A DNA stretch of 64,000 bases from Chiloscyllium plagiosum (lineage: Eukaryota): positions 5,384,154 through 5,448,153 of the forward strand of contig NC_057759.1 in assembly GCF_004010195.1 (NCBI RefSeq), written 5' to 3'. Position numbers and translations under genes: made by a program. The notes under the pieces were generated by a model. That model did no database searches, was not told the origin of the DNA, and saw only the letters and a list, made by a program, of their open reading frames with translations. This document shows, in pieces, positions 28,063 through 55,254 of this stretch (positions within the stretch are counted from its first letter, which is position 1; each line of letters starts with the position of its first letter).

Positions 28063-28119
28063 AATAAGGCAGGGCAAGTGACTGAAATGTCAGTGGGGGA
28101 GAACTTAGGGCCAAGTGAC

Positions 28120-28412
28120 CGGGGATGGCTCAGTGGTTAGCGCTGCTGCCTCACAGCACCATATACCCGGTTCTGAATCCAGCCTCGGGTGACTGTGTGA
28201 AGTTTGCATGTTCTCCCTATTTCTGCATTGGTTTCCTCCAGGTGCTCCGGCTTCCTCCCACATTCAAAGATGTGTAGATTAGGTGAAGTGGCCATGCTAA
28301 ATTGCCTGTCGTGTTCAGGGATGTGTACGTTCAGTGCATTAGTCAGGGAAATGTAGAATAATAGGGCAGGGGAATGGGTCTGTTTGGATACTCTTTGGAG
28401 GGTTGGTGTAGA
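28120..28412 (+). mobile_element. Older HE1/V-SINE type SINE
   Basis: Diverged head and core. Confidence 0.75.
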
Positions 28413-31047: not shown

Positions 31048-31176
31048 CTAGCACCTCCGAATGTTCTGGTAGACAGATGATCCATTACCTCCCTGCCTTC
31101 CAGCACGCACATCTTGGTCCCTTGTCCTTTCAAGGTGCATTAACGACGCATAAGTTACGTGACTGTCAACCTCTCT
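31048..31176 (-). CDS. Terminal exon with ITIM (VTYASL) and distal tyrosine motif (SVYQNI), right copy
   Basis: Acceptor tctgttcccttgcag|AGA; reads REVDSHVTYASLMHLERTRDQDVRAGRQGGNGSSVYQNIRRC-TAG. Internal differences from the left copy are synonymous in this frame. Confidence 0.82.
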   Translation of the reverse strand, partial: REVDSHVTYASLMHLERTRDQDVRAGRQGGNGSSVYQNIRRC

Positions 31177-34100
31177 CTGCAAGGGAACAGACAATGTCTT
31201 AATCCAAGGCTCGTTGTATTTTTTTTACCATTTCTGTAATTGCACTTCAACAAAGGAGCTGAAGGACAGAGCAAATAGGAGCAGGAGTATGCCACCTGGT
31301 CCCTCCAGCCTGCTGCAATGGTATTGCCCAACTCAGACTCCCATTTCCCACTTTCTCCTTTAGTCCCAAGGTACTCTATCCCAATCTTCTTTGAACATTA
31401 TTTGATGGTCTCACCATGACCGCTTTCTGTGGTAGAGAATTCCACAGGCTCCCCACTTTCTGGGTGAAGACAGTTCTGCCCATCGCAGTCCTACACCGTT
31501 TCCTTTCGACTATGACCCATTTGTTTTTAACTCCTCCCCCTTAGCTCTGTTAGTGGGAAATTCCTTCCTACTTTTACCCTGTTAGAATTTATAGGTTTCC
31601 TCCACCCCAATTCTTCTAAACTCTAGTAAATATAATCCTAACTAATTCAGTCTCTCATCATCTGTCAGTCCTGCCATCTCAGGAATCAGTCTGAGGTAGT
31701 GAAGAAGACAGTTATTTAGTAAAAAGAAAATAGAGCGGGAACGAACCATTTAGCCCAAAGATTACAGGGCCTGGAGTCACATTCATACAGCACTGAAAAA
31801 GACCCTTCAGTCCAAACAGTCCACGCTGAACATAATCCAAAACTAAACTGGTTCCAACTGCCTGTCGTTGGTCATGACATTCCAAGTTTTTTTTTGTTAA
31901 TGATCTTATCTAAACAGCTTTTAAACATTGTGATTGTGTCCGTATCCACCATTTATTCTGAAAGTTCATTCCATACACAAACCACTTTATAAGAAAAATT
32001 GCCAGTTATGCCTTTGTAAAATCTTTCGCTTCACCTTAAAATGTCCTGTTTGTGAAAGCCTTCACCCCAGGGAAAAGAAATTTGTCATTAACCCTATCGA
32101 TACCCCACATTATTTTATAAACCTCTATAAAGTCACCTCCCAACTTCCTGTGCTCCAGTGAAAGAAGTTCCAGCTATCTAGCCTCTCCTTCTAACTCAAA
32201 TCTTCCATTCCCAACAGCATCCAGGTAAATCTCTTCCAAGCCCTCTCCAACTTAATAATATCCTCTCTAATAACAAGGAGAACTGGACACAGTACTCCAG
32301 AACAGGCCTCACCACTGTCCTGTTCAACCTCAATAGGGCATCCCAACTCCTATAATCACAAGTCTGAGCAATAAAGTCAAGCGTGCAAAATGCCTTCTTA
32401 ACCACCCTATCTGTGATGCAAACTTCAGAAAATTATGTACCCGAACCCTTAGGTTTTTCTGTTCCACAACACGCAGTCTTCCAAGACACTGAAGCTTTCC
32501 ATGAAGCTACTTAAAGTTCAGGATCATGGACCTTACTGTCAATCTTTAAAAGTGGCAACTTGTCTGTCCAACTGCATCACAATGTGGATCTGAACACCTT
32601 AATGATGAGTTAGAGCAGCAATAGAGAAAGAAAAGGAAGCCTATCCTGCACCAGATCCCACTACCTATACAGGGAATCTGCCAGTTCAATTGCATATAGA
32701 GCAACAGCAAAAATGTATTATCCTGAGTAGATGATATCCTTGCATTGAGGGACAGCTGATGACACTTTGGTGATGATTGGGCCTAGTTGCTACAAATGTC
32801 CTGATCTCAGTTGATAACAGAACACTTTGCGACATGGATTGGTCTGCAAAAAGTGTTAGTTGCATAAAGCTTGCAATAGCTGCAAAGATCAAATAGTCAT
32901 TGTCCACTCTTGTTTATATTTCTCAAGCCATGATCTCAGAGCCCTTATGGCTACTCCTTGCAGAGTGTCCACTCTTGCATTGCAGCCATCCAGTAAGATT
33001 ACACATTATGATAGGTATTCTGTTGACAGGTCTTTTGTCTGCAGTGGAACGCAAAGCATTACAGAATATGACTTAGGAAAGCCAGACTGAGTACAGATTT
33101 CCTTCAGTCAAGGTCATGATTTTTAAAAAAATATACACTTGTAGGATGCAGGTGTGACTGGCAGGGCTAACATTGATCACCCATCCCTAATTGCCAATAG
33201 GGCAGTTAAGAGTCAGCCGCATTGTTGTGTGTCTGGAGTTATATGTACGCCAGACTGGGTAAAGATGACAGATTTTCTTCCCGAAAGGACATTAGTACCC
33301 AGACGGTGCTCTCTCCTGTCAATGGTCCTCATTAGACTTTAAATCCAAGACTTTTATTGAACTCAAATTCACCCCTTCGCCATGGCAGGATTTGCACCTA
33401 GGTCACTGGAACATCACCTAGGAATCCAGATTTATAGTCTAGCATCAATACCATTCAGCCAGGACCTCCATTTGCTAGATCAGACAGCTAGTTGAGTGTT
33501 CATAACATGGTTCATTTGCTCAGATCCACTTTTAATGATTAACTAATGTATGACACAGAACCATATCTATTAAACTGATGTCAATACTTATTATTTAAAT
33601 GGTGAAAGACTGCAGAAAGCTGTGGACCTAAGGGTTTGGGAGTCCTGGTCCGAGAATCCCAAAACTGAAGCTAGCGGCCAAGTTAAGCAGGTCATGATAG
33701 CCTTTATTTCAAAGGGAATGGAATATAAAAGTCAGGAGATTTTGCTTAAACTATACAAGACACTCGATAGACCACATCTGTGATACAGTGATCAGTTTTG
33801 GGCCTCCGTATCTAAGGAGAGGTAGATTAGGCATTGGAGGCAGTCCCAAGAAGGTTCACTAAACTGATCCTGGGAATGGAGGGACTGTGTGTTTAGGAAG
33901 AGATTGCATAAGTCTAGCCTATCCTCATTTGGTGTTGAGAAGAAAGATGGGCGACCTTATTGAAGATTTTCAGATGACTTGACTTGAGGGGAGGTGCAGA
34001 GAGAGTTTGTTTCTCCATGTGTGTAAGAGTCTGGGACCAGAGGGATATCATTTCAGAATGTGGCAGTCCGAGGGAGGGGGAAAGGGGGTTTGTCGCCCAT

Positions 34101-35241
34101 TGAAGACAGAGGCGAGGAGGAATTTCTTCTTTTCAAGGGGAGAGAGTCTGTGGACTTTACTGCAGATGCTGGATGTCTTGGCTCGGTCGTAAAGTATGCA
34201 AAAGTGAGTACTGCAGATGCTGGAAACCAGAGTTTAGGTCAGAGTGGTACTGGAAAAACACAGCAGGTCAGGCAGCATCCGAGGAGCAGGAATATCAACT
34301 TTTCAGGCAAAAGCCCTTCAATTCCTGCTGAAGGGGATTTGCCCGAAATGTCGATCTTCCTGCTCCTCAGTCGTGAAGTATATTCAAGGCTGAGATTTTT
34401 AATCTGGAAGAGGAATTGAGGGTTATGGATGAAAGTGAAGTTGAGGATTATTAAATCAGCTGCATTCAGCAGAGCAGACTTTGCTGGTTGAATGGCCTAT
34501 TACCGCTCCTAAGTGTGATCATTTTATTGGACTTGGAGAGGGATAACGTGTCTAAGATATAGATGCTAAGTTGCAGGATCCCATAAGCACTGAGAAACCC
34601 AGGATGCTAGTCCACAGATCCCTGAAGGTGGCAGAACAGGCTAATAGTTAAGAAGGCCTTCAGGACACTTGCCTTTATCAGTTGGAACATAGATTATAAG
34701 AGCGGGTAGGTGATATCTGAGCTGGACAGGACTTTGGTCGGGCTACAGCTAGATCACTATAGGAAGGATGTGATTGCAGTGGAGGGGGTGCAGAGCTGAT
34801 TCACGGCAATATTGCCTGGGTGTCACATTTCAGTGATGTGGAGAGCTTGGATAAGCTCGGATTGTTCTGTTTGGAGCAGAGAAGGTTGAGGGGTGATCTG
34901 ATACAGGTGTAGTAGACTGTGACAGTCTCGTAGCTGTAAGGCACATTTCCAATGGGTAAAGGAATCCATAAGCAGGGGTCACAGATTCAAAGGTAAAAAA
35001 TGGATTTGCGGAGAAAATTGTTCGTCCAGTGGATGGTGGGCTACCTGGAACTCTCTGCCTCTGAAAGTGGGAGACGCAGAAACCCTCGTTATTCAAAGAA
35101 GTATTTAGATATACAACTGCATTGCTGTTGCCTCTGGGGATAAGGGTGAAAGCGCTGAAAAGTGAGAGTGTTGCTTTCAGATCTTTGCTGATAAGAACCC
35201 CTCCTTGTCCTGTAAAGGTCTATGAAATAACAAGAACTTAC

Positions 35242-35267
35242 TGATTCTCTTCTTGCCATGATATGAC
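35242..35267 (-). CDS. 26-nt cytoplasmic-tail micro-exon (right copy, in frame)
   Basis: Acceptor ggttgtttcttccag|GT, donor TCA|gtaagt. Phase 1 to phase 0, exactly what is needed to join the phase-1 upstream exons to the phase-0 terminal exon. Encodes HIMARRES. Confidence 0.65.
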
Positions 35268-38200
35268 CTGGAAGAAACAACCAGAAAACAATTGTAGTAC
35301 ACAGTAGGGCTAGGGATTGCATTTTCCACCTCCCTTGGCATTGTGTGTCAGTTCAGAAGATAGGTGCACGAGCAGAGGCGGCTGGGCAGTATATGTGGGT
35401 GGCAAGACAGGTGGAGGGCATGGTTACTAAAGCACACAGCATCCAAGAGCAGCAGGTGATGTTGAATTTGTACAAGGTGCTTGCTGGACATCAGCTAGAA
35501 TATGGCATGCAGTTGTGTTTGCCACATTATAGAAAATATATGAATGTATCTCAGTGAGTGAGAGAGCGCCAAAGCAGTTTTGATTTGATTTATTGTCGTC
35601 AGATGCACAGAAACAGTGAAAAGGTTTGTTTTGCATGCTCTACAGGCAGATCATCGCATACAAAGTGCACCAGGGCAGCAGAACAGACTGCAGAATACAG
35701 TGTTAAAGCTGTAAAGAAGGTGCAGAGAAGGAGATAAACATTAATATTTGAGAAGTCCGTTCAAAAGTATGGTAACAGCGGGGAAGAAGATATTCTTTTT
35801 CTGTTGGTATGTATATTCAAACACTTCTATCTTCTTCAGAGGTAATAGAGCATAACCAGGTTGGGAGGGCTGTATGAATATGTTGTCCACTTTCCCGATG
35901 CAGCAAGAAGTATGAGTGGAGTCAGTCAATGGAAAACTGGCTTGTGTGATAGATTTCCAAGAACCAGGTTCCAGGGAGGAGAAACTCCAACGATGAGGAT
36001 ACTGAAAGAAGTCAGGGACTGTACTCCCTTAGAGTGGAGAAGCAGAGAATGAGGGAGGTTTTCAAAATAGTTAGCAGGGGCAGGACAGAATTAATAGGGA
36101 GAAGCTGTTCCTGAACAAAAACGAGAATGGTGGTGGGGGTGTGGTGGTGGTGGCGGCTTGTAGATTTAAACTGATATGGAAACAAAGCAAGTTGGCAAAG
36201 AAACGTAAGGAATAAATCTTTTCACCCAGTTAGGGTGTAGAATGCACTGCCTGGAAATGTGTTGGAGGTAGATTCAATGGAGAAGGGTATTTGGACAGAA
36301 ATGGATTGCACAGGTATCTGGTAGGATTGGCATGAGGGGATACATTTCTGTCAAGCTGTGCAGAAAGAAGTTGGTTTCAGTCAGTGCCAACATACCCACA
36401 CCATCTGAATTAAACATTTGATTCGAAGTATCCTTGACAAAGCCGTTGTGTTAGGTGGAGATTTTTTTTTAGATTTAGTTACCTACACTGTGTAAACAGG
36501 CCCTTCAGCCCAACAAGTTCACAATGACCCTCCGAAGAGCAACCCACCCAGACCCATTCCCCTACACCTAACACTACGGGTAATTTAGCATGGCCAATAA
36601 CCTGCACATCTTTGGACTGTGGGAGGAAATCGCAGCACCCAGAGTAAACCCACACAGACACGGGAGAATGTGCAAACTCCACACAGACAGTTGCCCAAGG
36701 CAGGAATTGAACCTGGGTACCTGGCGCTGTGAAGCCAACCACTGCTAATCACCATGTTGCCCAATGTCGGGCTATATTATCTCATTGAAAGAATACAGCA
36801 CAGATTAAGGGAATTGTGAAGTTCAGTGAGGAATCCCATATCACATTGAACAGCAGAGCAGACAAGATGGGCTGAATGACCTATTTCAGCTTCTATGTGC
36901 AGCAAACCACCAACAGACTGGACCTACCATTTACTGCTCCCATCCCTAATTGTTCCCGAGGAAAGTTAGGCACCAACCATATCGCTGAGAGTCTGGAGTC
37001 ACATGCAGGATCAGACTAGGTAAGGAAGGAGATTTCTCTCCCTGAAGGAGACCAGTGAACCAGATGAATTTTCGTTCTGAGATACGTTATCACTGCTTCA
37101 CACTTTTTTTTAGATTAGATTACTTACAGTGTGGAAACAGGCCATTTGGCCCAAGTCCACACCGACCCACCAAAGCGCAACCCACCCAGACCCATTCCCC
37201 TACATTTACCCCTTCACCTAACACTAGGGCAATTTAACATAGCCAATTCACCTAACCTGCACATTTTTAGACTGTGGGAGGAAACCGGAGCATCTGGAGG
37301 AAACCCATGCAGACACGGGGAGAATGTGCAAACTCCACAGAGAGTCGCCTGAGGCGGTAATTGAACCCGGTTCTCTGGCGCTGAGAGGCAGCAGTGCTAA
37401 CCACTGTGCCAACGTGCCTGTTAGTAAGACAAAGTTAAAAATCTCACAGTACCAGGTTATAGTTCAACAGGTTTATTTGGAAATACATGTTTCCCAAGCA
37501 CTGCTCCTTTGTCAGGTAGCTAGAGGGGAGCTAGCTACCTGATGAAAGAACAGTGCTCCGAAAGACATTACTTTCAAATTATCCGATTGGATTATACTCT
37601 GATGTTATGAGATTTTTAACTTTGTCCACTTCAGTCCAACACTAGCATCATGTTAGTAAGATGATCGCTTACTTTGCAGGTGATGCAAAAATAGTTGGCA
37701 ATGCAAGTTGTGCGTGTGCCACGAAGATAGGGTTAAGTGAATGGGCAAGAAACCTTGAATATAACATGTAGAAATGTAAGGTGATGCAGGAAGAACAGAG
37801 GAGTTGAAGATTATTTAAATAGAGAAAGACTGCAGAAAGCTATGAGTCTGAGGGATTTTACAGTCCTCATCCATGAATCTCAAAAAAAACTAGTGTTTGA
37901 ATTCTGCAGGTGAGACCAGATCATTAGATATAGGAACAGAATTAGTCCCATTGGGTCTCCTCTGCCATTTTGCCATGGATAATATCATTCTCAATCCAAT
38001 CCTCCTGCTTTGTCCTGATAACCATTGATCCCCTTATTAATCAAAATCTGTCTTAAAGACACTTAATGACTGGGTCTCCACAGCCTTCCGTGACAGTGAG
38101 TTTCACAGATTGACCACCTTTTGGCTGAAGAAAGTAGTCCTCATCTCAGTTCTATAGGGTTGTCCCTTCACTTGAGATTGTGCCCTTGGGTCCTTGTTTC

Positions 38201-38579
38201 TGGGGGATGCCTGAGGACACTTGCTTCTCTTGATATGTTAATGATATGGATCATGCAGTGCAGGAGTCCAATTCCAAGTTTGCAATTGACATAAAACATG
38301 GGAAGAGCATTAACTGTGAAGAGAATGATGTGGAACTCTAAAAAGACATTGACAAGTTGATGGGAGTGGGTAAATTGGTGACAGGTCCAGTTCGATGTAG
38401 AGGCAAGTGTGAAGTAATGAAATTTGGTGAGTAGTACATTGAAAGACAGTATAAAACAGGGTACAACTCTGAAGGGGGGTGTATGAGCTGGGGGGGGTAT
38501 ATATGTGCACTGATCACTGAAGGCGATAGGTCAGAGGGACAGCAGTTAATAAAGCTCAGTATCCTCAACTTTATTAATT

Positions 38580-41050
38580 GAGGTGCAGTTTCTCACACCC
38601 TCATTTAGGAAAGGTTACCTGAACTCCATGCCCCTAATGCTAAGAAATGGAGTCCGAGGACCACCCACCATCATTACATCAGCGTCTGATTAGGCCCAAT
38701 TGATCAGGGTGATCAAGTACTGATCGATCAATTTGTCAGCATCAAAGACCCTCCCAAAGGTATAAGAAACATTCAGGTATTATAATCACCGCAACACAAC
38801 TCTCAGGAGTGGTAGCTCAAGATGAACAACCATGAAAAGATGATGATCCTTGGACCACCAGAAGGAGACCAAATTGCCACGTGGATGAAGACCAATATCT
38901 AGCACAGTGGTATTTGTACATTCAAATTTAAGTTTAAGAGTTCAGATAGTTAATTAGAATTAGAGGGTTAATTATTAGTTTATAATGTATTGATATTATA
39001 ATATTAGCTGTGTTGAAATAGATTTAAAAAGTCATTTCTTATTAATGTTTTGAGTCGACCTGCAGTTCTTTGCTGAATATAAGAGTCAAAATACACTGTG
39101 TGGCAGACACAAGAAATTGGTGACTTTGGTGGGACTCAATAAGAAGTGACTTTGTTGTTGTAAAATTGAACCCCATGGAACCTAATACTCCCTCAAATTT
39201 TGCCTGTGTCCAAATTAAGAAGACAAGTCCCACCTGATGGTCGGGAATCCAAGTAAACTGAAGGAATAGAAAGGTCTACATTGGACTGTTCTTTAAAGGA
39301 TAAATCCAGTAGGTATGTGTGTGTGCGCGCGCGCGAGAGAGAGAGATCCATCGTGGGACAGGTAAGGTAAAACAGCGGAAGTTGGTACAGACCCAATGTG
39401 ATTAAGATTGGAACACAGCGAAAGCTTAGTTTAATTTTGAATGGCAAAGAAATGTACCTGAGAAAACGACTGTCTGATTTGGAAAAAAAGTTAAGACTTG
39501 TATATCAGTAAGGAAAGGTGGCCGATATGGGCATGATTTTGCAGTAATGATGAAATGGGACCAGGATCCCTAAGACAACAATATTGAGACAATTGGAGGA
39601 AAATTCTCGGAAAGTGGTCTTTCAAGCTTGAAAACCCTACAACAATGATATGCTGTATCAGACAATTGCTAGGAAGTGAGCAGGAATTGAAAAAAGTTTA
39701 GAAGTGTGGCAGTGGCAAAGCACAGCCAGTCAGGCAGCATCCGAGGAGCAGGAGAATCAGAAATGAAGAGTTTATGTTCAAAAGGTCAACTCTCCTGCTC
39801 AGATGCTGCTGAGTGGCTGTGTTTTTCCAGCGTAACACTTTTAGACTCTGATCTCCAGCATCTGCAAACCTCACTCTCGCCTTGGAATCGAAAAGGTTTC
39901 GTAAAGAATCAGATAATGCAAGGAAAGAAATAGAGTTGCAAAGGAAAGTGGCGACTCAGGACTAAAGAAATCATGGGGCAATTCCAAACCCAATGTGAGA
40001 AGGCATACAGGACACCCAGTGAGTTGTTTCAGCTGAAGAAGCCACTGAGAATGAAGTCAGTCAGTTAAAAAGTAAATGTGCAGATCTACAAGCAGCAATA
40101 GATGTTAAAGGCGAAGAACAGGAGGTAGACTGAGATGAGTTCAGGCAAGATGTGCAGCAGTATGCCATGTGAACAGAGGATTATGGTTCTCCGCTAACCT
40201 TCCCAGAAGACCCAACCTGTTTAGCCTCTACTGCAGTGAACTCGATTACCATGGAAAGACCGGTCAGGGATGCCGATGCCCCAGCGTTAACATACACGAA
40301 CACACTTAGTCACACAATTGGTGGAATTTGCTAAAACGATTTCAGAATTTGAGCCATCTGCAGATCCATATGTATTGCTTGTAGTCAGACAACAAAAGGA
40401 TTTGCATTGATTAGATGAGAGAGAGGAGGGAAAAAATTATCAAAATGTCTTTGAGCCAGTCAGCAGAGTCTGCAATCCCAGTCTCTCTGGATGTAGTGGA
40501 AGGAACCCAAGCCACCACGGAAGTGGCAATTCTCACATCAATTGGGTACAATAAAGGAGACCCTGTAGATGGGCTAAACTAGTGCAGTCAAATGAAGAGA
40601 GAACAGCTGACAGCCTACTAATCGGTTATGTGTGTACTTCTCGTGAGTCTATAAACAGGGGTCTGTTATTGGAAGCTGATTCAATGAAGTGGGCTGGGCT
40701 GTAATTTCACGTGCCACTGAAGACAGCCGGAAGACATGTGTGAACTTCAATCCTGCAGAGCCAACCCACAATGAGATGTGTGTTCTGAGGAGACTGTCTC
40801 TGATGTGGGAGAAAGAAGTGCATAAACCAGACAAGAATAAAACGGGGAAAGAGAGGAAAATGCTTCCTTTCAGAGTCTCAATCCAGTATTGAGGAATGAA
40901 GGAAGAGGAGGTAATTATTATCAAAGGATCCCAGCAACGGGGAGAGATAGTACGTGTGGCAGCCAGCGTGGTGCTACTACTGTGGGCAAACAGGACACTA
41001 CGCTCGAGAATATTTAGCTGATGTGTGGGAGGCACAATGTTATAATAACT
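38580..41050 (+). mobile_element. Old LTR-retroelement remnant with a tRNA-Arg-like PBS (mirror ~3220-4890, which lacks the PBS segment)
   Basis: TGGTGACTTTGGTGGGAC at 39118-39135, 16/18 to the complement of the vertebrate tRNA-Arg(UCU) 3' end, followed by purine-rich decayed gag-like sequence. Boundaries approximate. Confidence 0.5.
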
Positions 41051-44000
41051 TTAGTTTATTTGTCCTTACAAAAGGTAACACCGGTTGATCAACCTTACTA
41101 GCACTGAAAACTCCAACTAACAGTAATACACTTAACTAATTCCTAACAAACCTAACTTGAACTCTGTCCCTTACTGTCACTACTTTATTTTCTACTTACA
41201 GGATGTGGTTGCGACTGGCTGTGCCCTGCATTAATCACCCTAGTTTCCAGTTTCCCCCTTGAGAAGATAACAGTGAGCTGCCTTCTTGAACCATTGCAGT
41301 CAATGTGCTTCAGGTAGGCCCCCATGACCTTTGGGAGGTAATTTCCAGATGTCGACCCAACAATGCTGAAGGAACAGCTGATATATTTCCAAGTCAGGAT
41401 GGTGAGTGAATCGGAGGGGAAATTGTAGGGGGTGGCATTCCCACGTATTTCCTGCCCTTGCCCTTCCAGATGGAAGCGATCATGGGTTTGAAAGTTTTTT
41501 TATGAGGAACTTTGGTGAATTTTGCAAATGGTACACACTGCTGAGATTGAGCATCGATGGTGGAGGGAGTGGATGTTTGTGGATGTGGTGCCAATCAAGC
41601 GGGAGCTATTTTGTCCTGGATGGTGTTGAGCTTCTCTAGTGTTCTTGGAGCTGCACCAGGCAAGTGGGGAATATTCCATCACATTTCTGACTTGTGCCTT
41701 GTCGATGGTAGACAGGATTTTGGGGGTGTGGCTGAGGGTGGAGGGGGTATTTCTGGAGATGCGTTACTCGCTGCAGTATTCCTAGCCTCTGGCCTGCTCT
41801 TGTAGCTACAGTATTGATATGGCAAGTCCAGTTCAGTTTCTGGTCAATGGGAATTCTGGTTCTGGGGAGACTCAAATAGTAATATCAAATTGTCAAGGAG
41901 CTGATGGTTAGATTCTCTCTCAATTGTTACCCCCAGAATGTTGATGGTGAGGGGATTCAGCGATGGTAACACTATTGAACATCAAGAGGCGATACTTGGA
42001 ATCTTTCTTATTAGAGATATGTGTGGTGCAAATGTTACTTGTCACTTGTCAGCACAAGCCTAGGTATTATCAAGACCTTGCTACATTTTGACGCAGACTG
42101 CTTCAGTATCTGAGGCATGGGGAATGGAACTGAAGAGTAGAGTCATAGAAATGAACAGCATGGAAACAGACCCTTCAGTCCAACTCAACTATGCCGACCA
42201 GATGCCCTAAATGAATCTGATCCTATTTGGCAGCATTTGGATCATATCCCTGCAAACCTTTCCTGTTCATGTACCGATCCAGGTGCTTTCTAAATGTTGT
42301 AAATTAACCTGTCCCTACAACTCCCCTCTGACAGATCATTCCGTACACACACCATCCTCTGTGTGAAAAAGACATGCCACTTAGGTCCCTTTTAAATCTG
42401 TCTTGTCTCACCTAAAATCTATTCCCTCCAGTTTTGGACTTGCCTACCATGGGAGGAAATACCTTAGTCATTCACCCTAATTCACCCTATCCATGCCCCT
42501 CAAGTTTTTATAAACTTCCACATTTTACTCACCTTTAATCTTAATCGATCCAGGGAAAATAGCCCCAGCCTATTCAGCATTTCCCTATTCCTCAAACCCT
42601 CCAACCCTGGCAACATCCTTGTAAATCTTTTCCAAAACCTTTCAAACTTAAACAGTATCTCTCCTAATAGCAAGGACACCAGAATTTCATCCAGTATTCC
42701 AAAAAAAGGACATAACTAATATGCTGTACAGTGAGAACATTACATCCCAATTCTTATACTCAGTGCACTAACCAATGAAGGCCAGTGTACCAAATGCCTT
42801 CTGGTTCGCTATCCTGTCCACCTGCAACTCGCTTTCAAGGAACTATGAACCTGCACCCCTCGGTCTCATTGTTGCGCAATATTCCCCTGAATGCTACCAC
42901 TAAGTGTATAAATCCTACCCTGATTTGCCTTACCAAAATTCAACACCTCACTTTATCTAATATTTATCCAATGTGAAATACATTGAACACTTCTGGGTCC
43001 CCATATCTGAGAATATATAGTCTGGGCAGCGAGACAGTGCAGAGAAAATTCACACAGCTGATCCCGGATATGGAGGGACTGTCTGACGAGGAAGAGGTTG
43101 GGTAGGAGTAGGTCGGGTCTGTCCTGGTTGGAGTTCAGAAGAATGAGAGGTGACCTTATTGAAGATTCTTAGAGGGACCTGAAAAGGGAGGAGAGAGAGA
43201 TTGTTTCCCCTTGTGTAGGAGAGTTTAGGACCAGAGGGGCATTGTCTCAGAATAAAGGAGGTTACCCATTGGAGATGGAAATGGGAAGGAATTTATTTTC
43301 TCTGAGGGACTAATCGGTGGAATTCTTTACCGCACAGGGGTGTTGAGCCTGGCTCACTGATTATATTCAAGCCGAGATAAAGAGATTTTTAATGAGGAAG
43401 GGGAATTCATGGTGGATGTTTTGTGGCAGTAAGAGCGTTTGAGTGGGATGGAGGGGAGGGGGGGGGTGTAATGACACAAATGTAGAGTTGAGGGTGATTA
43501 GATCAGAAGTGTTCCCATTTAACATCAGAGCAAATTCTCTAGGCTGAATACCACAGTCCCACACCAACATCTTTTGGTCTTCGCATTCTGAAAACAGTTA
43601 AGTTACATGAACAGTGCAGATATAAAACCATTGCACAGAGTTGAGCCAAATTTCACAGTAAAAGGTCTCTCAAAGGCAAATAATCTCCAGTTAGAAACTC
43701 GTCTCGGGATCAGAGCAGAGGAGAAAGTTGGTGATCTACCAATTACAGAACACTCCTCCTGAAATTAACCCTCATCCCCAGCAGCTAAATCTGGAGTAAA
43801 AGTGGGACTATTCCAACAGCAATAAAAGATGATGTGAAGATGTCGGTCAACCTGAGAGACCTATTATGACAAATTGTCATTGACTGGTATACATTCAGTA
43901 TGGCAACCGGAGAGCCAATACATCCCACATCTTCCATTGCCAATGTCAATTTGCTCCACCTAGAGTTGGAACTCTTGTAAAGTGTCCTGATCAGTTTCAA

Positions 44001-44121
44001 GACCAGAAACGAAATACACCATTTCCATTTAGCCAGATCAGCATTCGTGAACCATGGTTTCCATCCCGTGTTAGCTTCCCCTCGCACCTCCCACTGCACT
44101 GCGGCCACTTGGTTCACTCAC

Positions 44122-44388
44122 TCTGGACAGTGATTTCCACCTGGAGGGACATGAACGTTGAAAGGTTCTGGAAAACCATGCAGCGGTACCATCCTGAATC
44201 TATTAAGGTCACTCGGTGGATGTGATAGATGTTGTGAGACACAGAATCAGAGCTCGCGAGGATTTTGTTTCTGTAGAAGGAAGTTTGTCCTCTCCCACAC
44301 ACGTGATCCTGGGTGCAGTGACAATTCAATGTGATGGATTCACCGACTCTCTGCAGTCTGGGATCCACCTGCAATATCACCGGACTTT
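44122..44388 (-). CDS. Ig domain exon 3 of the FcR-like receptor gene
   Basis: Acceptor ctctgtcaatttcag|AA, donor A|gtgagt, 267 nt, phase 1-1. Encodes SPVILQVDPRLQRVGESITLNCHC...SFYRNK...VTLIDSGWYRCMV...SLQVEITVQ. Confidence 0.88.
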
Positions 44389-44495
44389 CTGAAATTGACA
44401 GAGTAGCTAAAATGTTTTGTGATGTAAACCATAGGATTTTGATTAATCATTTTCAATGTCTGTTGCTTGGGTATCTGCTTCACAATTGGAGTGAG

Positions 44496-44719
44496 TGTGA
44501 TGATGTCAGCTGGGTGGAACACAGAGTATGAATTCCCCCTGATTGGACCAGGTTAACAGCCCCAATCAGAGAGTCCTGGCCAAAAGGTGTAAACGGGAGT
44601 GTCAGGGGTTCTGCTCAATTTTGGAGTCAGCTCTGAGCTAGCTGAGTTAGTGACATGTACCATACACATGTAATTAAAGTGGGACTTGGCTGAATACCGG
44701 CCTCTGTGGAGTTACTTCA
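44496..44719 (+). mobile_element. Possible short solo LTR
   Basis: TG...CA bounded, with opposing CCAAT boxes and an ATTAAA; no clear TSD. Confidence 0.35.
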
Positions 44720-46318
44720 GATTTTCATCTCTGCATCTGATGTTAACTATGAGCAGGTATTTCTGACACCATTCCATCTAAAACCAGTTGGGAAGTCTGG
44801 ATATAGACTGCATAGCTTTATATATTTAGATTACGTTTTGTTGGAAGGATTTATATTGCAGTTGTGAGAGACCACTTGGGATGAAAATTCATACCATGAC
44901 AAAATTTTTCATTTGGTTGGAGAGTGAGATTCTGAGACTAGGTTGCTGAATGTTAATAAGATAAACTATGATAGTATGAGGCGTGGGTAGGCCATGATAG
45001 ATCGGGAAATGTTAGTGAAAAGAATGAGAGTGGGCAGGCAGTGGCGAACATTCAAAGAGCGCATGGGTCAACTACCAAACTTATTTACTCCAATCTGATT
45101 TAAGTGAAACGAGAACAGTAGCCAAATTATGGCTTACAGGGGAAGTTTCAGATAGCATTGGATGAAAAAAAGGCTTTCAAATTAGCAAGAAAAGAAACAA
45201 TAGCCTTAAGGATGAGGAACAGTTCAGAAGTCACCAAAGGAGGACCAAAAGATTGTGTGAGAATAGGAAACTAGAGTATTAGTATAGGCTTGCTGGGAAC
45301 ATAAGAACTGACTGTAAAATTTCTGCAAATATGTAAAAAGAAACTTATTGCTGTAAACTAATCTAAGTCCCTTGCAGTCAGATACAAGGGAATTTACAAT
45401 GAGGAACAAAGAAACGGCTGATGAACTGAATTTATACTTCACTTCTGTCTTCATACAGTAAAAGATGAAAAATGTGCCGGAAATGATGGGGACGCAAAAG
45501 TTGTTGAGCGGGAGGAAATAAAGGAATATTGCTAGGGACATTGATGGGATTGAAGGGAGATCGATCCTCAGGGTCTGACAATCTACATCCCAGAGTGGCC
45601 ATAGAATTTATGGTTGCGTTGGTGACAGTGTTCAAGGATCCAACAGACTGTGGGACAGTTCATGTAGATTGGATGTTTGCTGATGAAACCTTACTATTTA
45701 AAAAAGGGAAGTAGAGTCATAGAGTAATACAGCATGGAAATAGGTCCTCTGGCCCATTGAAACCCTCTCAATTAAAAACATACACCTAGAATAACTCACC
45801 TCAGCTCGTAGTCTATTAAAGTGTGAGTGTGTGACAGAGAACTCCTAACTTCTACAATTAAGGAAAAATAACAACTTATTTTCCTAACTCTAATAGTGAA
45901 CACTAAACAACAACTATTTACAAACTACTTATTATTTGACTCCAATGCAATAAAGATGTTTTGTTCCATTAACACTTATGAAACATTTTATTAGCTAAAT
46001 CTCAAGACCACATGGTCTCTGCTGTCTTCAGTTTTCCTGTTGCTGATTTCGCTGGGTCATCTTTTTTTTCACTGCGAATAAACGTTACATGAAAAGGTAC
46101 CTTTTGATAGGGGAAAAAATACTAATTTCTTTAATAGCACGTTGTTGGAAAGGCAGTTAATTTTCTGGTATTTTATCCCACTATGGCAGTTGCTCTCTGA
46201 CTAATTTTCAAAATGTCTTCATTCTTATATCACCCAACATTGGATTGTCTCATTTGGTCAATGTTGGAAAAACAATAAGTTCAAACTCAATTTGCTTTTA
46301 GTAGCCCATGGCATTTTA

Positions 46319-46603
46319 GGGCAGCACGGTGGCACAGTGGTTAGCACTGCTGCCTCACAGCGCCAGAGACCCAGGTTCAACTCCCGCCTCAGGCAACTGT
46401 CTGTGTGGAGTTTGCACATTCTCCCCGTGTCTGCGTGGGTTTCCTCCCACAGTCCAAAAGGTGAATTGGCCATGCTAAATTGCCCGTAGTGTTAGGTGAA
46501 GGGCTAAATGTAGGGGAATGGGTCTGGGTGGGTTGCTCTTCAGAGGGTCGGTGTGGACTTGTTGGGCTGAAGGGCCTGTTTCCACACTGTAAGTAATCTA
46601 ATC
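46319..46603 (+). mobile_element. HE1/V-SINE type SINE
   Basis: Head, core and tail with small internal deletions. Confidence 0.88.
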
Positions 46604-49600
46604 TGATTAGTTAACCTAGAATTGTTCTCAAAACAACAAACAAAACTCTGGTATCCATTTCACAGCTAAATGTTATACATTTTCAATTTTCCAGTATACT
46701 CTGGGAGGGCCATCTAGTCAGATACAGGGGCTTGTAATCTCTCAGTTCAGAACAACATTCTCTGTCTTAAAGATACAATACATTTCTTCAAACCTCATAA
46801 CACAGGAGGGTGTTGAAACTGTACTGGAAATGCTGGGGAACACAGAGGTTGGTGAGAGAGAGCTGGGGACATTGATGGGTAAAAATGGAGATCGATCCTC
46901 AGGGCCTGACAATCTACACTACAGAATGGTTAAGGAAATAGTTTTAGAATTGATACATTGGTGACCATATTCCAGGATTCTACAGATGCTGGGATAGTGC
47001 CTGCATATTAGACGGTTGATGATGCAATCCTACTATTTAAAAAGGGAAGTAGGGTCATCGAGTAATACAGCAGGGAAAGAGGCCCTTCAGCCCAAACTGC
47101 TCCATGCCAACTATGGTTCCCACTAAGCTAGTTACAATTGCCCTCATTTGGTCCACATCCCTCTAAACCCTTCCCATCCATGTACCTATCCAAATGTCAT
47201 TTCAAAATGTTACTATTGTACCTGCCTCAAACATTTTCTCTTCCAGTCCATTCCATCTTCACACCATAGTCTGAGCAGAAAATGTTGTCCCTCAGGTCCT
47301 CCTTAAATCTTTCCCCTCTCACTTTAAATCTGTGCCCTCTAGTTAGCCTTTTTCCCAGGGATGGGGAAATGATATCTGCATTCATCCTCTCCATGCCCCT
47401 GATTATCTTATACACCTCAATAAGGTCACCACTCATTCTCCCATGTTCCAAGGAATAAAGTCCTATCCTGGCCAATCTCTCCCTTCAACTCAGACCTACT
47501 CGTCCGGGCCACATCCTTATAAATCTTCTTTGCACTTTTTCCAGTTTAATTATGTTTTCTTATAACAGGGTTATCAAACCTATACACAATACAACAATTG
47601 TGGCCTCACCGATGACTTATACAACTGTAACATAAAGTGCCAACTCCTACGTTCAATGCCTCGACTGATGAAGGCCAGCATGCTAAATGCCTTCATAACC
47701 ACCTCGCCACCTATTGCGCTGCCTTCAACAAACGATGTAGTTATACTCCTAGACTCCTCTCTTCCACCAACATCTCTGGACCTTTAAACCTCCTAGCTTG
47801 GTTTGACTTTATAAAGTGTGACACCTCACACTTACCTGTATTGAATTGCATTTGCAAATCCTCAGCCCACTTCCCCACCTGATCAAGATCCCTCTGTAAT
47901 TGTTGATCACCTCTTCCTTGCTATCATCAATACTTTCCAATTGTGTATCATCCACCAACTTACTAATCATGCCTTGTACATTCACATCCAGATCATTTAT
48001 TTGAATAACAAATAATAAAGGTCCTAGCGCCGACTCCTGAGACTTTCCACTAGTCACAGATTTCCAGTCTGAGAGAAAAAAACCTTCAACCATCACTCTG
48101 CTTCCTAGAATTGAGCCAATATTGAATGCAATTAGTTAGGTTTCCATGGATCCCATGCGTCCTAACCTTTGTTACTAATCTGCCATGCAGGGCCTTGTCA
48201 AAATCCATGTAGACAACATCCATTGGGCATTATAGACCATCGGAATTGGGAATATCAGGGACATTTTGAGGATTCAACATTGGCCAATTTCATGTCAACA
48301 TAGGGACAGTTTAACCTGAGTGATGGATAAAACCATAAGCATTATAGCCAGAAATTGATATCAGAGCCACACCGTGCTGTGATCAGCTAAAAGTAACCGC
48401 TCAAATTATTAATCCCCTAATAATGCCAATCACTCAGTGTCATCTTTTCAGCTGCTGAAATGCATTTCTCTCGAGATTTCATGGGAATTAAATCAATCAA
48501 ATCATGTGATGCACGTCTGAAATAATATTCACATCAAATTCAGGGAATAACATTAGTTTAGACGGCGGATTGGCTAGCCAACAGACAACAGAGTCAGGAT
48601 AAATGGACCTTTTCTTTCTGTTTTAGTGGGATATAATGAGTGGGAGCCCACAAGGTTAAGCCTTTGTCTCCAACTATTTATAATCTGCATTCATGATTTG
48701 GGTGCAGTGATAAAAGGTACTCTAAGCAAATGTGCAGCTGACACTAAAATAATTGGGAAACCATAAGCTACAAGGTAGAAATAAGGTACTTACAAATGGA
48801 ACCAAATAGGTTAGGTGATGGCAATAATATTTGACGTTTGATGCAGGTGTGAGGTTGACCACTGTGGTTAAAGGAATAGAAATGCAACTTATTATTCAAG
48901 TAGGCGAGAAACTTCAGAGTGAGACAGTGCAGAGGGATCCGGGTGTCCTTGTGCATGAAACTTAGAAAGTTGGCATGTAAGGACAGCAGGTAATAAGGAA
49001 GGCAATTGGCAATTGCTGAAAGAATGGTGTAAATGAGTAGGGAAATGTTGCTGCAACTACACAATGCATTAAGGTTTCCTCATCTGGAGTGCTGCATGGT
49101 GGTTTGGTCCACTTACTTGAGGAAGGATATAATTGCATTGGAGGCAGTTCAGCAGAGATTCACTCAATCGATTACAGGGGTTTGTCTTATGTGGAGAGAT
49201 TAAACGGTTTTGGCATATACTCTCTGTAGTTTAGAAAAATGAGAGGAGATCCAATTGTGGGATATAAGATGTGAAAGGGTGAGGTGGGGTTGACAAAAAA
49301 GATGGAGAGAGGATGTTTCCTCCTGTGGGATAATCTCAAATGAGAGGTCATTAGTTCAGGATAAGGGGCTGAGCAGACTGAAAGCAGAGATAAGGAGGAA
49401 TGGCTTTTCTGAAAGTGAGTGGGGCAAGGGAGGTGTGAATCTGTAGAAATTCTTCCATCCGCCCTCCCCAGAGTTTGTGCGGGGAATGCCAGAACACTGA
49501 ATAACTTTGAGGAGGAGACAACAGGATTTTTGACTTTGCCAATCCACAGCACACTTCCCCATCTGATCAAGATTCCTTTATAATGTTTGGTAAACTTTCA

Positions 49601-50129
49601 TGCTGTCAACCATATTTATATCCTAATTTTGTGTCATCCACCAACTTATTAAGCATGCCTTGTACATTCACATCCAGATCACTTATGTAAATGACAAATA
49701 ATAAAGGTCCCAGCACCGAATCCTGTGGTGCACCACACATCACAGGCCTCCAGTCTGAGAATCAACCTTCAAACATCACTCCCTGCTTCCTCGAAGTGAG
49801 CCAATTTTGATTCCAATAAGGCTTTGTGACTAGCCTGCCATGAAGGAACTTGTCATAGGCCTCACTAAAGTCCATATAGACAGCATCCATTTGGAATTAT
49901 AGACCAGTCAGTCTGACATCGGAATTGGGAGTATCTGGGGCACGTTAAGTGTTCATCATTGGCCATCGTTTCAAGTCAATATGAAGGGTTAAAGGGAGCG
50001 GGGGTGGGGAAGTGGATATGGGGTTGAGATATGATCAACCACAGTCGTACGGAATGGGGGAAGCAGGTTTTGGAGGGACTGATTGGTCTCGTTCTGCTTC
50101 TAACCCTTATATTCTAAAGTGAAACGTAC

Positions 50130-50411
50130 TTCGCACATCCATATGTTTGTAAGCTGAAGTGTATACAGGGCCATCAGGATGATTAACAAACTGCATTTGG
50201 CATTGATACCGTCCTGTATCCTCAGACGTAACCCGTTCCTTTTCAAAAGAAACAGTTTTATTTCTTGTCCGGATCTCAGCCACAACAGAGCCTTCCCAAT
50301 AAAGCGTGTAACTGAATTCATCTTGCACACGGAATGCAAATTGACAATGCAACTTCAGTGTCTGTTCATACCACAGAGGTTCTGGCTCAGATTCAATAAT
50401 TGAATCAGGAG
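50130..50411 (-). CDS. Ig domain exon 2 of the FcR-like receptor gene
   Basis: Acceptor catttctttcttgacag|CT, donor A|gtacgt, 282 nt, phase 1-1. Encodes PDSIIESEPEPLWYEQTLKLHCQF...YTLYWEG...VTSEDTGRYQCQM...SAYKHMDVR. Confidence 0.88.
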
Positions 50412-53400
50412 CTGTCAAGAAAGAAATGACTTGAGTTAATAACGGGGCATAAGAACTAACCATACCAAACAGCTATACTTTGCCAGCAAAATCTCCACTT
50501 CTACGCAACCCCTGTCTCCACCTCATCATCCAACGTGACTTTCCCTCATGCTTCAGCAAGCAGTTGTGTAATCAACCCTTTCACTGTTGATTATAAAACA
50601 AATTTCGAAAAGGGACACCGAGTCTTGTTATCGCAGTGTCTTTTCCCCATTTCAGTCCACCATCCAAAATACAGAAAAGATCATCTATAATTCTCAGGAG
50701 CAGTGCATCTCATTGACAGGAACGATACAAGAGCGGGGTATTGTTTGAATGGAGAAAGACTGCGGAAAGCTATGGATCAGAGAGATTTGAGGAGTCCTTG
50801 TCTGTGAATCACAAAAAAAGCTAGCATGCAAATTCAGTGGGTGACAGGGAACACAAATTGTTTTTATTTCAAAGGAAATGGGCCATAAAAGGTGGGAAGT
50901 TTTGCTAAAGCTATACAGCCAACACACTAGTCAGACTACAGCTAGGATCCAAAGAACAAGTTGGGCCCCAAATCTGAGGAAGGTTAGACCAGCTTTGGAG
51001 GCAGCCCACAGAAGGTTTACTCAGCTGAACCGTGTATGGAGGGACTGTCTAATGAGGGTGATCTTGAGTAGTTGTGCCTGTCTTCATTGGGGTTTACAAG
51101 AAGGGGAGGCGACCTTATGGAATATTCTTCAAGGCTTTTACAGCATTGATGCAGAAGAGGTTGTTTCCCCTTGTGTGGGAGAGCCTGGGCCCAGAGTGGC
51201 ATCGTCTCAGAATAATGGGGTGTGGTGGGCACCCAGTGAAATTGGAGATGAGAAGGAATTCCTTCTGTCTGTGGGTAGTGAGTCTGTGGAATTCTTTACC
51301 GCACAGGGCTGTTGAAGCTGGATCATTGAGTGTATCCACGGCTGAAATTTTTAATTGGGAAGAGGAGTCGAGTGTCACTGGGGAGAGTAAAGTTGTGGAT
51401 AGTCAGACTGGTCGCGATATCATGTATCACTGAAGCAGATGCAATGGGCTGAATAGCCTAATTCTGATCCCACATCTCAAGAATTTGAGAACGCAAGTGT
51501 CACAAGTCACTGCTCTGCTAATATAGCAGTTAGTGTCTGCTATGAACAGAACAGATACTGCTGAGATCAACTATTCTTTCTGTGCTGTTAATGTTTGGAA
51601 AGGGGAACCATTTCCTAATGCCCTGCATTGACTGTGGAAGAGAAACTGCCAACTGGGGGGGGTTTACAAAAGGATTAAAAGAATGCATCAGACTCAGCGT
51701 CATTGAGTCTTCAAGGCATAGGTTCACACAACGCAGAAGTAGACACTTCGGTCTAACAAGTCCATGACAATCATAACCCCAAACTAAACTAGCCCCATCC
51801 GCCTGCACTTGGACCATATCGCTGCATTTTAAAAAATTCATGTACTTAGCCAAATGTTTTTTAAACTTTACAACTGTACCCATATCCATCACTTCCTCTG
51901 GAAGTTCATTCCACACTCGAACCATTCTCTGTGTAAAATCAATTGTTCTTCGTGTCCTTCTTTTAAAAATATGCCCACTGGTCTTGAAATCCCCCATGCG
52001 AGGGAACAAAAGACACCTACCATCCCCTCATGATTTTATTAACCTCTATAAGGTCACCCCTCAACATCGTGCACTCCAGCCTGTCCAACATCTTTTTATA
52101 ACTCAAACTCTCCATTCCCAGCAATATCGTGGTAAGTTTTTTCTGAACCCCCTTCTCCATAATAATAACCTTCCTTTAAATGGATAGCCAGAACTGGACA
52201 CAGTACTCCAGAAGAGGCCTCATCAACATACTATACAACCTAAACATGACATCCAATCCCCTATATTCAAAGGTCTGAGCAATGAAGGCAAGCACGTTAA
52301 ATGCAATCTTAACCATCCTGTCTTCCTGTAATGTAAACTTGAAAGAATTGTGCTCCTGAATCAGAAGTCTCTCTGTTGAACTACACTACCTAAGGCCCTT
52401 TTAATTGTAGAAGCTCTGCCTTTGTTTTACCAGAATGCAACACATCACATTTATCCAAATTAAACTCCTTCTCCCACTCCTCAGCCCACTGACCCGATCA
52501 CCTTTTAGGGCCAGAAGGAGGTTTGTAGTTGAAGTAGTGGCTCTTTTTCCCGATATGTATAATTAATGATCTCGATCTTGTTGTGCAGGGGGAGCATTTC
52601 CAAGTTTGCAGATTGCATAAAAACCTGGGAGAATTATAAACTCTAAGGAGAAATGGTGTGGAAATCCAATAGGACATTGACAAGTTGGTGGCATGGGTAG
52701 AGCGGCGGCAAATGCAATTCAATGTAAAGAGAAGTGTGAGGTGCAGCACTTTGGTGGGAAGAGCATTGAACGACAATTCAAAGTAGGGGGATACAATTCT
52801 ACAGAGGGGTGTAGGAGCAGAGGGAGCTGGGGCACATGTCCACAAATCAGTGAAGGTGGAACGACAAGGGGAGAGCAGTTAATAAAACACACAATGCCTT
52901 TGGCTTTATTAATATAGTTATAGAGTCCGACAGCAGGGCGGTGATTTTGAATATGTACAAGACACCAGTTAGACCTCAGCTGGAGTAGTGTGTATACTTG
53001 TTGGCACCATGTTATAACAACGTAATGGGAATTGGGGCAGGGTTTGAGGGAGCACAGAAGCAGTTTAGAGGCAAGATTCAATGGATGAGAAACTTCAGCG
53101 CTCGGGCTTTAATGGAGTATGATCCTTTTCAGTCCATAACAGACACAGTATTTACATTAAACCACGAGCTTTGTTTTGATTTAAATTGGGAAATAACCAG
53201 GAATTTGGTAGATAAAGGGAGCTGATTTTCTCTTAGCAAGAGATTGTTTCAGTTCAGATCATTTTCCCTCTGGGAGTGCACCAGCAGGATGTTTTCTTCT
53301 TGTTTCTCTTTTTAATTTGTGAAGCCTCCAAGTCAGGACAGTTTGAAATACAAACTTAAAATTCTCAGAGATATAAATAGATGTATATAAAAAAAACTTA

Positions 53401-54182
53401 TGCCCTCAAAATCCCGCGTGTCACACAAACAGACTCGTGGATGCAACATGACACTGAAAAGACAAAAATGGAAAGAAGGAGCCAGTTAAGTAGAAGGCTG
53501 AAGAGTTGGGTGACGATGATAGAAATATCGAAAATAGGAGTAGGGGTAGGCCATTCGGCCCTTCTAGAGAGCTCTGTCATTCAATGGGTTAGTCCCACTC
53601 AGTCCCCTGTTCCCCCTTTTAACGGCTTTAGTAACGAACTATATCTGAACTTAATGGGCGGGATCATATGTACTGGTCATATCACAGATTAGCAATCGAG
53701 TGGACCAGGGTGACAATCCACAGGGTGAGTACGAATCCCCCCACTTTCCTACGAGAGCCGCTGGGTAACAGCAATCCAGGCTCAGTGAGATCTGCACATG
53801 AGATGGTGTCATCGAAACCATGCCACCCACCCACTTCCCATCATCAGAAGAGCCCTTCTTGGAGACCGTTGCCTGTTCTTAGCTCTTCCCTTTCTCTTTC
53901 CAGATCCAATTGCCACCAACTTTCGAGTGGGCAAGCTGCCCAGTCCAAGGGCATGTGGCTCACAATGTGGCAGCAATGCCTGAGAAAGTTTGGGGGTGGG
54001 GGTTGGAAGGCACCGTCAATCGATTCAGTGAAGACCCATAAACCTTTGCGCATCACAGCTGCACCGGTGCTATCCCACAAGAAGACCAATATCCCAACTA
54101 TTCCCACCCCTGTCTATCTTTGGGAATTATTAAAACACACCCCAACAAAGAGGTTGGTTTATCTAACAGCAACATGACTCAC

Positions 54183-54458
54183 AGGATACTCTCACAAGAA
54201 TGCTGTTACTGTAGGGTGTTTTATATGCCGATGTGGAAGATTGGCATCTGTACTCCCCATCATCCTCCTTTCTAGCAGCCTCAATGATGTAAGTCTTCTC
54301 CCTGAACTCTTTGGTAGTTTTGTTTACGATCCAGTTATAGGTTGTCGAATGAAGCTCACGACCGGCATTGCAGCTAAGAGTGATCCGGTCACCCGTTAAC
54401 AATCTGTCCCACATTGGCTCCATCGTTAGTACAGGTACTCCAGTCTTCACTGAGGAAC
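54183..54458 (-). CDS. Ig (C2-type, FcR/FCRL D1-like) domain exon 1 of an Fc receptor-like immune receptor gene
   Basis: Acceptor tttttctatggattag|GT, donor T|gtgagt, 276 nt, phase 1-1. Encodes (G)SSVKTGVPVLTMEPMWDRLLTGDRITLSCNAG...YNWIVNK...IEAARKEDDGEYRCQ...SNSILVRVS with both canonical Cys, the Trp and the DxGxYxC motif; the N-terminus resembles FcR/FCRL 'VLTLEPPW...GE.VTLxC'. Confidence 0.9.
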
Positions 54459-54599
54459 CTAATCCATAGAAAAACATACACAGCCACAAGGGGAAGCACT
54501 GAAATTTGCTTGCTGCAGTAGCTTACCTCTCAGACAACTAAAGCTGGCTTAGGCTGATGAGTGGTAAGTAACATTCCCATCTCACAAATTCCAGGCAAC

Positions 54600-55135
54600 G
54601 ACTATCTCCAATAAGAGAGAATTGAACCATCACCCCTTGACGTTCAATGGTGTTACCATCTCTGAATCGCCTCAATATCAATATCTAGAGGTTACCAGTG
54701 AGAGAGAATTTCACCAGCCCCTTCACTTTCAAAGATATTACCATGACTGAATCCATTAGACTATCAGTATTGGGAGTGGGGGAGGGGGAGGTTTACAATT
54801 GAGAGAGAATTGAACTATCTCCCTTTGGTGTTCTATTGTGTTATTATCACTAAAGTCCCCACTATCAACATGCTGGGGTTACTATTGAGGGATAACTTAA
54901 CCATCATCCCCTTCATTTTCCCCATTATCAACATTCTGGAGGCTATGTTGGGTTGCTATCATTAAAAGCAAATCTAATCATCGCCCCCTTAATGGTGTTA
55001 GCATCATTGAATCACCCATTATCAACATCATGGGGATGACTGTCAAGAGAGAATCTAACCAACGGCCCTTGACTTTCAATATTAAGATCATCACTGAATC
55101 CCCCCACGATTAATATCCTAGGGTTGCCATTGACC
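54600..55135 (+). repeat. Tandemly iterated ~80-bp LINE-derived segment
   Basis: About six degenerate units of gagagagaattgaaccatcaccccttgacgttcaatggtgttaccatcactgaatccccactatcaacatcctggggttaccatt. Confidence 0.65.
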
Positions 55136-55254
55136 AGAAGCTGGATTGGACTCACCATGTAAACACAATAGCTACAAGAGCAGGTCAGAGGCTGGGAAGC
55201 CTGCAGTGAGTAACTCACCTTTGGACTCCCCACAGCCTGTCCACTATCAACAAG

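Follow-up and report, generated by a model that had tools for sequence, protein, structure and literature searches.

Does a shark gene copy with three open immunoglobulin (Ig) exons and a tyrosine-bearing tail exon encode a working Fc receptor (FcR)-like molecule, or is it what remains of one? The question arises in a stretch of 64,000 nucleotides (nt) of the Chiloscyllium plagiosum assembly (hereafter the window; positions 5384154–5448153 of the approximately 8-Mb contig NC_057759.1, here called C50), which holds a minus-strand gene copy at window positions 31048–54458 (copy B) and an inverted partial duplicate of it on the plus strand (copy A). A preliminary description of this DNA had presented copy B as an FcR-like leukocyte receptor gene with a signalling tail. 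We favor, with a probability of roughly 0.6, the reading that copy B arose by duplication of a shark FcR-like (FCRL-type) gene and is likely a decaying, still-transcribed relic. It is unlikely to be a working receptor because the leader, transmembrane (TM), and first immunoreceptor tyrosine-based inhibitory motif (ITIM) exons are missing from it as assembled.

Exons retained in copy B

Three Ig exons (D1, D2, and D3), a cytoplasmic micro-exon, and a terminal exon were located in copy B (Table 1), and joined together they formed one frame of 326 codons with no internal stop. Pfam Ig matches were obtained for D1 (1.9e-9), D2 (1e-7), and D3 (1.9e-5). Coordinates, frame, and Pfam matches thus bear out what had been described for copy B itself, namely, three phase-1 Ig exons with canonical splice sites, a micro-exon, and a terminal exon with the VTYASL and SVYQNI motifs; the TM and IVYSVV exons ascribed to the inverted copy were also found there. 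Homology searches with DNA and exons, which covered the whole C. plagiosum assembly including the unplaced contigs, gave 12 matches for D1, 10 for D2, and 8 for D3, nearly all of them on C50. For the TM exon there were 7 places, and for the terminal exon 10. Because these two exons recur so often and proteins of related sharks hold every exon type in the same order, the exon assembly is not a product of chance.

Table 1 Features of copies A and B in window coordinates
Feature	Position	Strand	Remarks
Copy B Ig exon D1 (FcR D1-type C2 domain)	54183–54458	−	276 nt, open, phase 1-1, AG..GT
Copy B Ig exon D2	50130–50411	−	282 nt, open, phase 1-1, AG..GT; 6 nt shorter than in paralogs, in frame
Copy B Ig exon D3 (nearest to the bird FCRL second-domain type)	44122–44388	−	267 nt, open, phase 1-1, AG..GT
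Copy B cytoplasmic micro-exon	35242–35267	−	26 nt, phase 1-0, AG..GT
Copy B terminal exon	31048–31176	−	ITIM VTYASL, distal SVYQNI, stop
3.1-kb deletion junction in copy B	38197–38201	−	Equivalent of copy A 5238–8376; TM and IVYSVV exons lost
D4-deletion junction, common to both copies	38588 (B); 4877 (A)	− (B)	Removed a fourth Ig exon kept in paralogs
Intron remnant upstream of copy B D1	54459–55788	−	~89% like paralogs; high-identity homology stops inside a long interspersed nuclear element (LINE) near 55788
Copy A	1653–16893	+	90–96% identical to copy B; begins ~670 nt past the D3 donor position; no Ig exons
Copy A TM exon	5848–5991	+
Copy A first cytoplasmic exon	7158–7223	+	ITIM IVYSVV
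Copy A micro-exon	11572–11596	+	25 nt; 26 nt in copy B and two paralogs
Copy A terminal exon	16796–16893	+	Cut by an N gap; contig C89392 starts with a 96%-identical continuation

Exons missing from both copies

A leader, a TM segment, and an ITIM tail do not occur together in either copy, as copy B lacks the leader, TM, and first ITIM exons, and copy A lacks the ectodomain. The proposal that copy B is itself a signalling receptor is therefore not supported for the locus as assembled. No leader-exon match was found in ~80 kb upstream of copy B D1, the first 21 kb of which are gap-free, and genome-wide DNA searches with the leader exons listed no match near copy B. Leader exons lie 4–9 kb upstream of D1 in all four aligned paralog copies; in copy B, the gap-free DNA upstream of D1 matches another repeated unit of the cluster instead. 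Both deletion junctions of copy B fall within a gap-free contig. No hidden TM exon was revealed in copy B when it was scanned for hydropathy in all six frames and searched by tblastn with TM peptides of the inhibitory and activating types. None of the 13 database matches of 161–2000 amino acids was a protein containing copy B D1, which is weak evidence, and many sister copies bear stops or frameshifts.

Positions 62177–62286 were considered as a leader exon and rejected, since they represent a repeated 52-nt, phase 1-2 exon-like unit from another part of the cluster. The unit recurs at ~15 other places on C50 with its open frame conserved and probably serves a second gene family of the cluster as a tail exon.

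In copy A, the first 1.6 kb belongs to another segment, and no Ig exon was found on the 16.9-kb contig, bounded by N gaps, that carries the copy. Because of the length of its micro-exon, the tail reads in frame only if splicing uses an AG that lies 2 nt further on. An Arg in its TM segment was ruled out as the signature of an activating or dual receptor, as the six other TM copies have Gly and the Arg is private to copy A. An intron of copy A contains a 706-nt tandem duplication (97%; 13579–14989) that is absent from copy B. Between the two copies, on the minus strand, lies a repeat-rich stretch (17394–20640) with an open stretch and breaks at N gaps and without a Pfam match, which we take to be a provirus-like remnant with long terminal repeat-like repeats, a motif resembling a tRNA primer site, and a gag-like open stretch. 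A reverse-transcriptase element, presumably Penelope-like, is inserted in the 3' flank of copy B (25519–28129, minus strand; RVT_1 0.0017) and is not found in the A-type flank (contig C89392).

Gene plan of the family in sharks

The full plan of the family comprises a two-exon leader (31 + 30 nt coding), D1-D2-D3, an optional D4, an uncharged TM segment, two ITIMs, and a distal Y-Q-N motif; proteins of related sharks have three to six Ig domains and three tail tyrosines. Two paralogs on C50, at 5.126–5.174 Mb and 3.362–3.399 Mb, show the expected succession of leader, D1–D4, TM exon, ITIM exon, micro-exon, and terminal exon, and both bear frame lesions. These paralogs and RefSeq proteins of related sharks match the ancestral order of Ig domains, TM segment, two ITIMs, and distal tyrosine that had been pieced together from copies A and B. 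The RefSeq models XP_060712762-8 (H. ocellatum), XP_072422780-90 (C. punctatum), XP_043539744 (C. plagiosum), and XP_0594979xx/XP_0594983xx (Stegostoma) have the exons, order, and tail motifs of copy B's family and possess leader, TM, and first ITIM exons, unlike copy B, which lacks all three. Copy B D1 is 84–90% identical to its counterparts in the three closest species.

Among the database proteins sampled, relatives were present in 11 shark species, in agreement with the suggested cartilaginous-fish origin. Such families had also been called poorly characterized in this lineage; indeed, a literature search with thin coverage of subscription journals turned up no work dedicated to shark FcR-like genes, but the proteins of the family are already annotated automatically as FcR-like in these 11 species, under names such as FcgRI-like and FCRL2-5 that do not come from functional assays.

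At C50:5477177 and 3945021 (minus strand), TM exons with a short tail were found that carry an Arg or His close to the N-terminal end of the membrane segment; four other sharks also have short-tailed TM exons with His or Arg. These exons are candidate activating partners of the inhibitory members. Judged from sequence, the family appears to be paired, with inhibitory-type members (uncharged TM segment and ITIMs) and activating-type members (polar TM segment and short tail). Just upstream of the window, one of the two exons on C50 is flanked on both sides by orphan D3-like exons.

The exons of XP_043539744 lie at C50:5.236–5.126 Mb, 150–260 kb from the window. The model fuses the leader, D1, and D2 of one copy with D3 and the tail of the next, omitting a frameshifted duplicate, and the region may be a false duplication or the model a stitched one. 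Another RefSeq model (P0054; C50 near 4.00 Mb) joins a D1 exon of the family to histone H4, a histone gene being located nearby, and this fusion is probably an annotation artefact. In a Scyliorhinus torazame protein (P0050), the fourth domain is unlike the FCRL types and groups with tandem Ig exons on contig C91073 (L112; support 94/89). By eye we take this domain to be leukocyte receptor complex (LRC)-like, and the protein would then be a mosaic in the style of LITR; no LRC match was confirmed by a PDB search.

Since 17 of the 150 scored Ig_2 matches lay on C50 and one tested exon there matched FcgRI D3 at 1.5e-13, this contig holds further FCRL-like families. The segment at 1.0–7.1 Mb (L094–L104) contains other Ig-receptor families with FCRL D3-like and D5-like exons, and these may represent FCRL in a more canonical form than the family of copy B does.

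Relationship to Fc receptors

We compared each domain of copy B with the PDB. For D1, 59 of the best 60 of 73 matches were FcgR, FceRI, or FCRL (best, 8.4e-17), with a score of 47.8 bits over one stretch of FcgRIIIA D1, in keeping with the FcR/FCRL-like N-terminus that had been noticed in this domain. The first 24 rows for D3 were all FcgR, whereas D2 matched the PDB FcRs weakly (E 0.008). Control exons were taken from CEACAM-like (L105–L109 on C47) and Siglec/CD22-like (L110 and L113) arrays of the same genome and from one array that is LRC-like by eye; FcgR and FceRI were absent from their PDB rows (54 rows, the best 60 of 91, and 14 rows). A profile match to FCRL5 (2e-86) was discounted because FCRL5 also tops the Siglec-like control through summed repeats, and LILR, KIR, and CD22 were absent from the best 60 of 224 PDB matches of the profile search.

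An AlphaFold2 model of D1-D2 of an ortholog (predicted TM-score 0.66; 19 sequences) gave Foldseek rows that, as listed to rank 43, were all classical FcRs. A four-domain model was uninformative, matching multi-Ig proteins with a TM-score of ~0.25 and LILRB2 first. When shark and bird FCRL domain sets were compared, shark D3 was most like the bird second domain and D2 was ambiguous; shark D1 scored best on a proximal bird domain, yet the bird D1 profile preferred shark D1. With the bird query, all of the 120 proteins listed out of 318 came from birds.

The gene structure also resembles that of the FcR/FCRL family, in which each Ig domain is encoded by one phase-1 exon and the signal peptide is split over two exons, the latter feature being seen in the paralogs and not in copy B. 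Linkage to SLAM/CD2, IGSF9, DUSP23, and TAGLN2 also marks the FcR/FCRL family; the synteny markers PF09785 and PF01127 had no match anywhere in the assembly. A search with PF11628 gave a single match in the assembly, a TM exon on contig C12 that we take to be CD3-zeta-like; an FcR-gamma partner was thus not found, which is not proof of its absence. On these sequence comparisons, we assign copy B to a shark FcR-like paired-receptor family.

Transcription, selection, and age

Transcript evidence consisted of public contigs from four runs of four studies, compared with window positions 44001–46300; that these runs are RNA is a guess. D3 was covered almost exactly by contigs in all four runs. In three of the four, contigs ceased to match at the D3 acceptor (44388), leaving 30, 29, and 304 letters unaligned, and the adjoining edge of the upstream intron had no coverage; this pattern would fit splicing from D2. 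At the other end of the exon, contigs in three of the four runs continued past the D3 donor into the intron, a read-through that leads to a stop after two codons, and no loose end at the donor was seen among the rows shown, with 136 further rows hidden. The D1 stretch, or part of it, was present in 20 of 24 listed runs, none of which is recorded as RNA. Copy B is probably transcribed, without sign of a splice to a TM exon in these contigs, which could miss rare forms.

Comparison of the pooled Ig exons with the paralog modelled in RefSeq gave proportions of nonsynonymous and synonymous differences of 0.094 (pN) and 0.124 (pS), respectively, and the Ig exons therefore show no clear constraint, though the comparison is not decisive.

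Alternative explanations

Several observations weigh against the reading of copy B as a decaying relic. The Ig exons retain their open frames, cysteines, and splice sites, and the branch of copy B D2 and D3 lies outside the pair of C. punctatum and H. ocellatum, so that the copy is old; an old copy with three open exons argues for a long function, past or present. The terminal exon, with 5 nonsynonymous and 9 synonymous changes, looks constrained, although this difference is not decisive. The region is rich in N gaps (25 in 404 kb), the deletion junction and the 5' break are read from the assembly, and contigs of guessed RNA status lose rare splice forms. In addition, two unplaced contigs (C92772 and C99556) bear orphan leader pairs. 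The open D1–D3 and the orphan leaders would suit a functional soluble receptor, the leader of which was lost in assembly and the transcripts of which end after D3, yielding a secreted three-Ig decoy like catfish IpFcRI or the soluble FcgR homolog of ayu. The immediate stop after read-through of the D3 donor and two hexamers resembling poly(A) signals, at 43393 and 43297, agree with such a product, and FcR homologs that have no TM segment occur in teleosts (PMC6755117) and Xenopus (PMC2413239). However, the 21 kb of gap-free DNA upstream of D1 has no leader and belongs to a different repeated unit, the sole in-frame ATG just upstream of D1 (54477) yields no signal peptide, and intron read-through is frequent in contigs from total RNA; we consider a soluble receptor unlikely. 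It is more doubtful still that the assembly scrambled what is really one intact membrane receptor, of which copies A and B would be pieces or haplotypes, B supplying the ectodomain and A the TM segment and tail. The position of copy A between N gaps, the D4 deletion that it shares with copy B, and a tail that is in frame with the AG 2 nt downstream speak for a scrambled gene, whereas the two copies differ by 4–10%, which exceeds what is usual for alleles, and by several insertions, the foreign 1.6 kb lies at the start of copy A, and the rows shown contain no loose end at the D3 donor.

A separate doubt concerns the membership of the family and is independent of the state of copy B. The family could be a shark expansion of a related C2-set ITIM stock (PECAM1-, CEACAM-, or LRC-related) that is FcR-like only in looks. 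In the domain trees, which lacked mammal, amphibian, and teleost rows, shark D1 grouped with bird FCRL D1 with support values of 95/79 and 93/75, but the grouping was lost in a smaller set, and an approximately unbiased (AU) test did not reject a grouping of shark D1 with CEACAM-like domains (p 0.344). PECAM1 clusters stood next to the first-ranked FCRL clusters in the Atlas ranking, both at 0.98, and CEA appeared as PDB match 2–4. The second leader exon of the sharks has 30 nt and does not follow the 30/21-bp leader rule, which, according to PMC2413239, applies to FCRL1-6, FcgRI, and FCRLB and to only a fraction of XFL. None of the 11 calponin-repeat (TAGLN2-like) matches was on C50. The predicted D1-D2 angle also differed from that of FcRs, with a root-mean-square deviation of 13–17 Å from FcR two-domain structures and of 7.1 Å from GPVI, although interdomain angles of such models are unreliable. 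Against this alternative stand the FcgRIIIA score of D1, the absence of FcgR and FceRI from the rows of the same-genome controls, the neighboring exon that matches FcgRI D3, and a three-tyrosine tail pattern that bird FCRL has as well (it fits 33 of 54 shark and 43 of 120 bird proteins, counted with no control set). We regard a non-FCRL origin as rather unlikely. At the other extreme, C50 would be a shark FCRL microchromosome with paired receptors that predate bony fish and encode the Fc receptor for shark IgM (or IgW/IgNAR), copy B being a secreted three-Ig decoy made by D3 donor read-through; this far-reaching version appears the most doubtful of the readings considered here.

Comparison with known receptors

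The shark family shares with tetrapod FCRL1-6, bird FCRL, and Xenopus XFL a D1-type N-terminal domain, a split leader, one phase-1 exon per domain, an uncharged TM segment followed by an ITIM tail, and paired short-tailed members, and its longer members carry D5-type proximal domains, as do tetrapod and bird FCRL. It differs from these receptors in a second leader exon that is longer (30 nt against 21) and in the third domain, which is most like the second domain of birds. The TM segments of the activating type contain Arg or His but no strict NxxR, unlike those of XFL; XFL with an NxxR TM segment use FcR-gamma (PMC2413239).

Classical FcgR and the FceRI alpha chain are the best single-domain matches for shark D1 and D3 and are weakly similar to D2. 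Tryptophans of the linker and D2 belong to the IgG-binding site of classical FcRs, and these were not visible in the alignments of shark D1 and of the profile. The hinge predicted between shark D1 and D2, an angle that such models give unreliably, did not superpose on the acute hinge of classical FcRs. Catfish IpFcRI and ayu PaFcgRl consist of Ig domains without a TM segment or tail, as the D3 read-through product of copy B would; however, they have a signal peptide or proven secretion and bind IgM, whereas copy B has no leader as assembled. The fcgr1a-like, fcrl3, and fcrl5 genes of PMC11372145 could not be tied to the shark family.

Proposed history and function

Copies A and B descend from one D4-less ancestor; as assembled, copy B has lost the TM and first ITIM exons and its 5' end, and copy A its ectodomain. 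Most likely, birth-and-death evolution left copy B as a broken by-product. Intact members of the family may be type I leukocyte receptors, for which B cells are a candidate site and immunoglobulin is one candidate ligand. By analogy with established ITIM biology, clustering by ligand would lead to phosphorylation of the ITIM tyrosines and to recruitment of SHP-1/2-type phosphatases. The distal YQN (YxN) motif would dock Grb2, as the YENV motif of mouse FCRL1 does through pY281 (PMC10562807), and short-tailed paralogs with a polar TM residue would signal through an adaptor with an immunoreceptor tyrosine-based activation motif (ITAM), balancing the inhibitory members.

The locus itself is ordinary, and its shark family is moderately interesting, being annotated automatically and apparently unstudied. 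A 2014 survey did not find FcRL homologs in shark genomes (PMC4016189), and a 2026 review repeats the absence of FCRL in cartilaginous fish and asks how antibodies serve phagocytosis there (PMC13337447). Sharks likely do have an FCRL-like family of the kind that such reviews call absent. The significance of this family rests on its intact paralogs and orthologs, which are already labelled in databases. If the relationship is true, a family spread across sharks that has FcR-type domains, ITIM tails, and partners of the activating type would date FCRL back to the base of the jawed vertebrates. It would also offer cloneable candidates for the Fc receptor for shark IgM that a 1988 paper, cited in PMC6795676, reportedly described.

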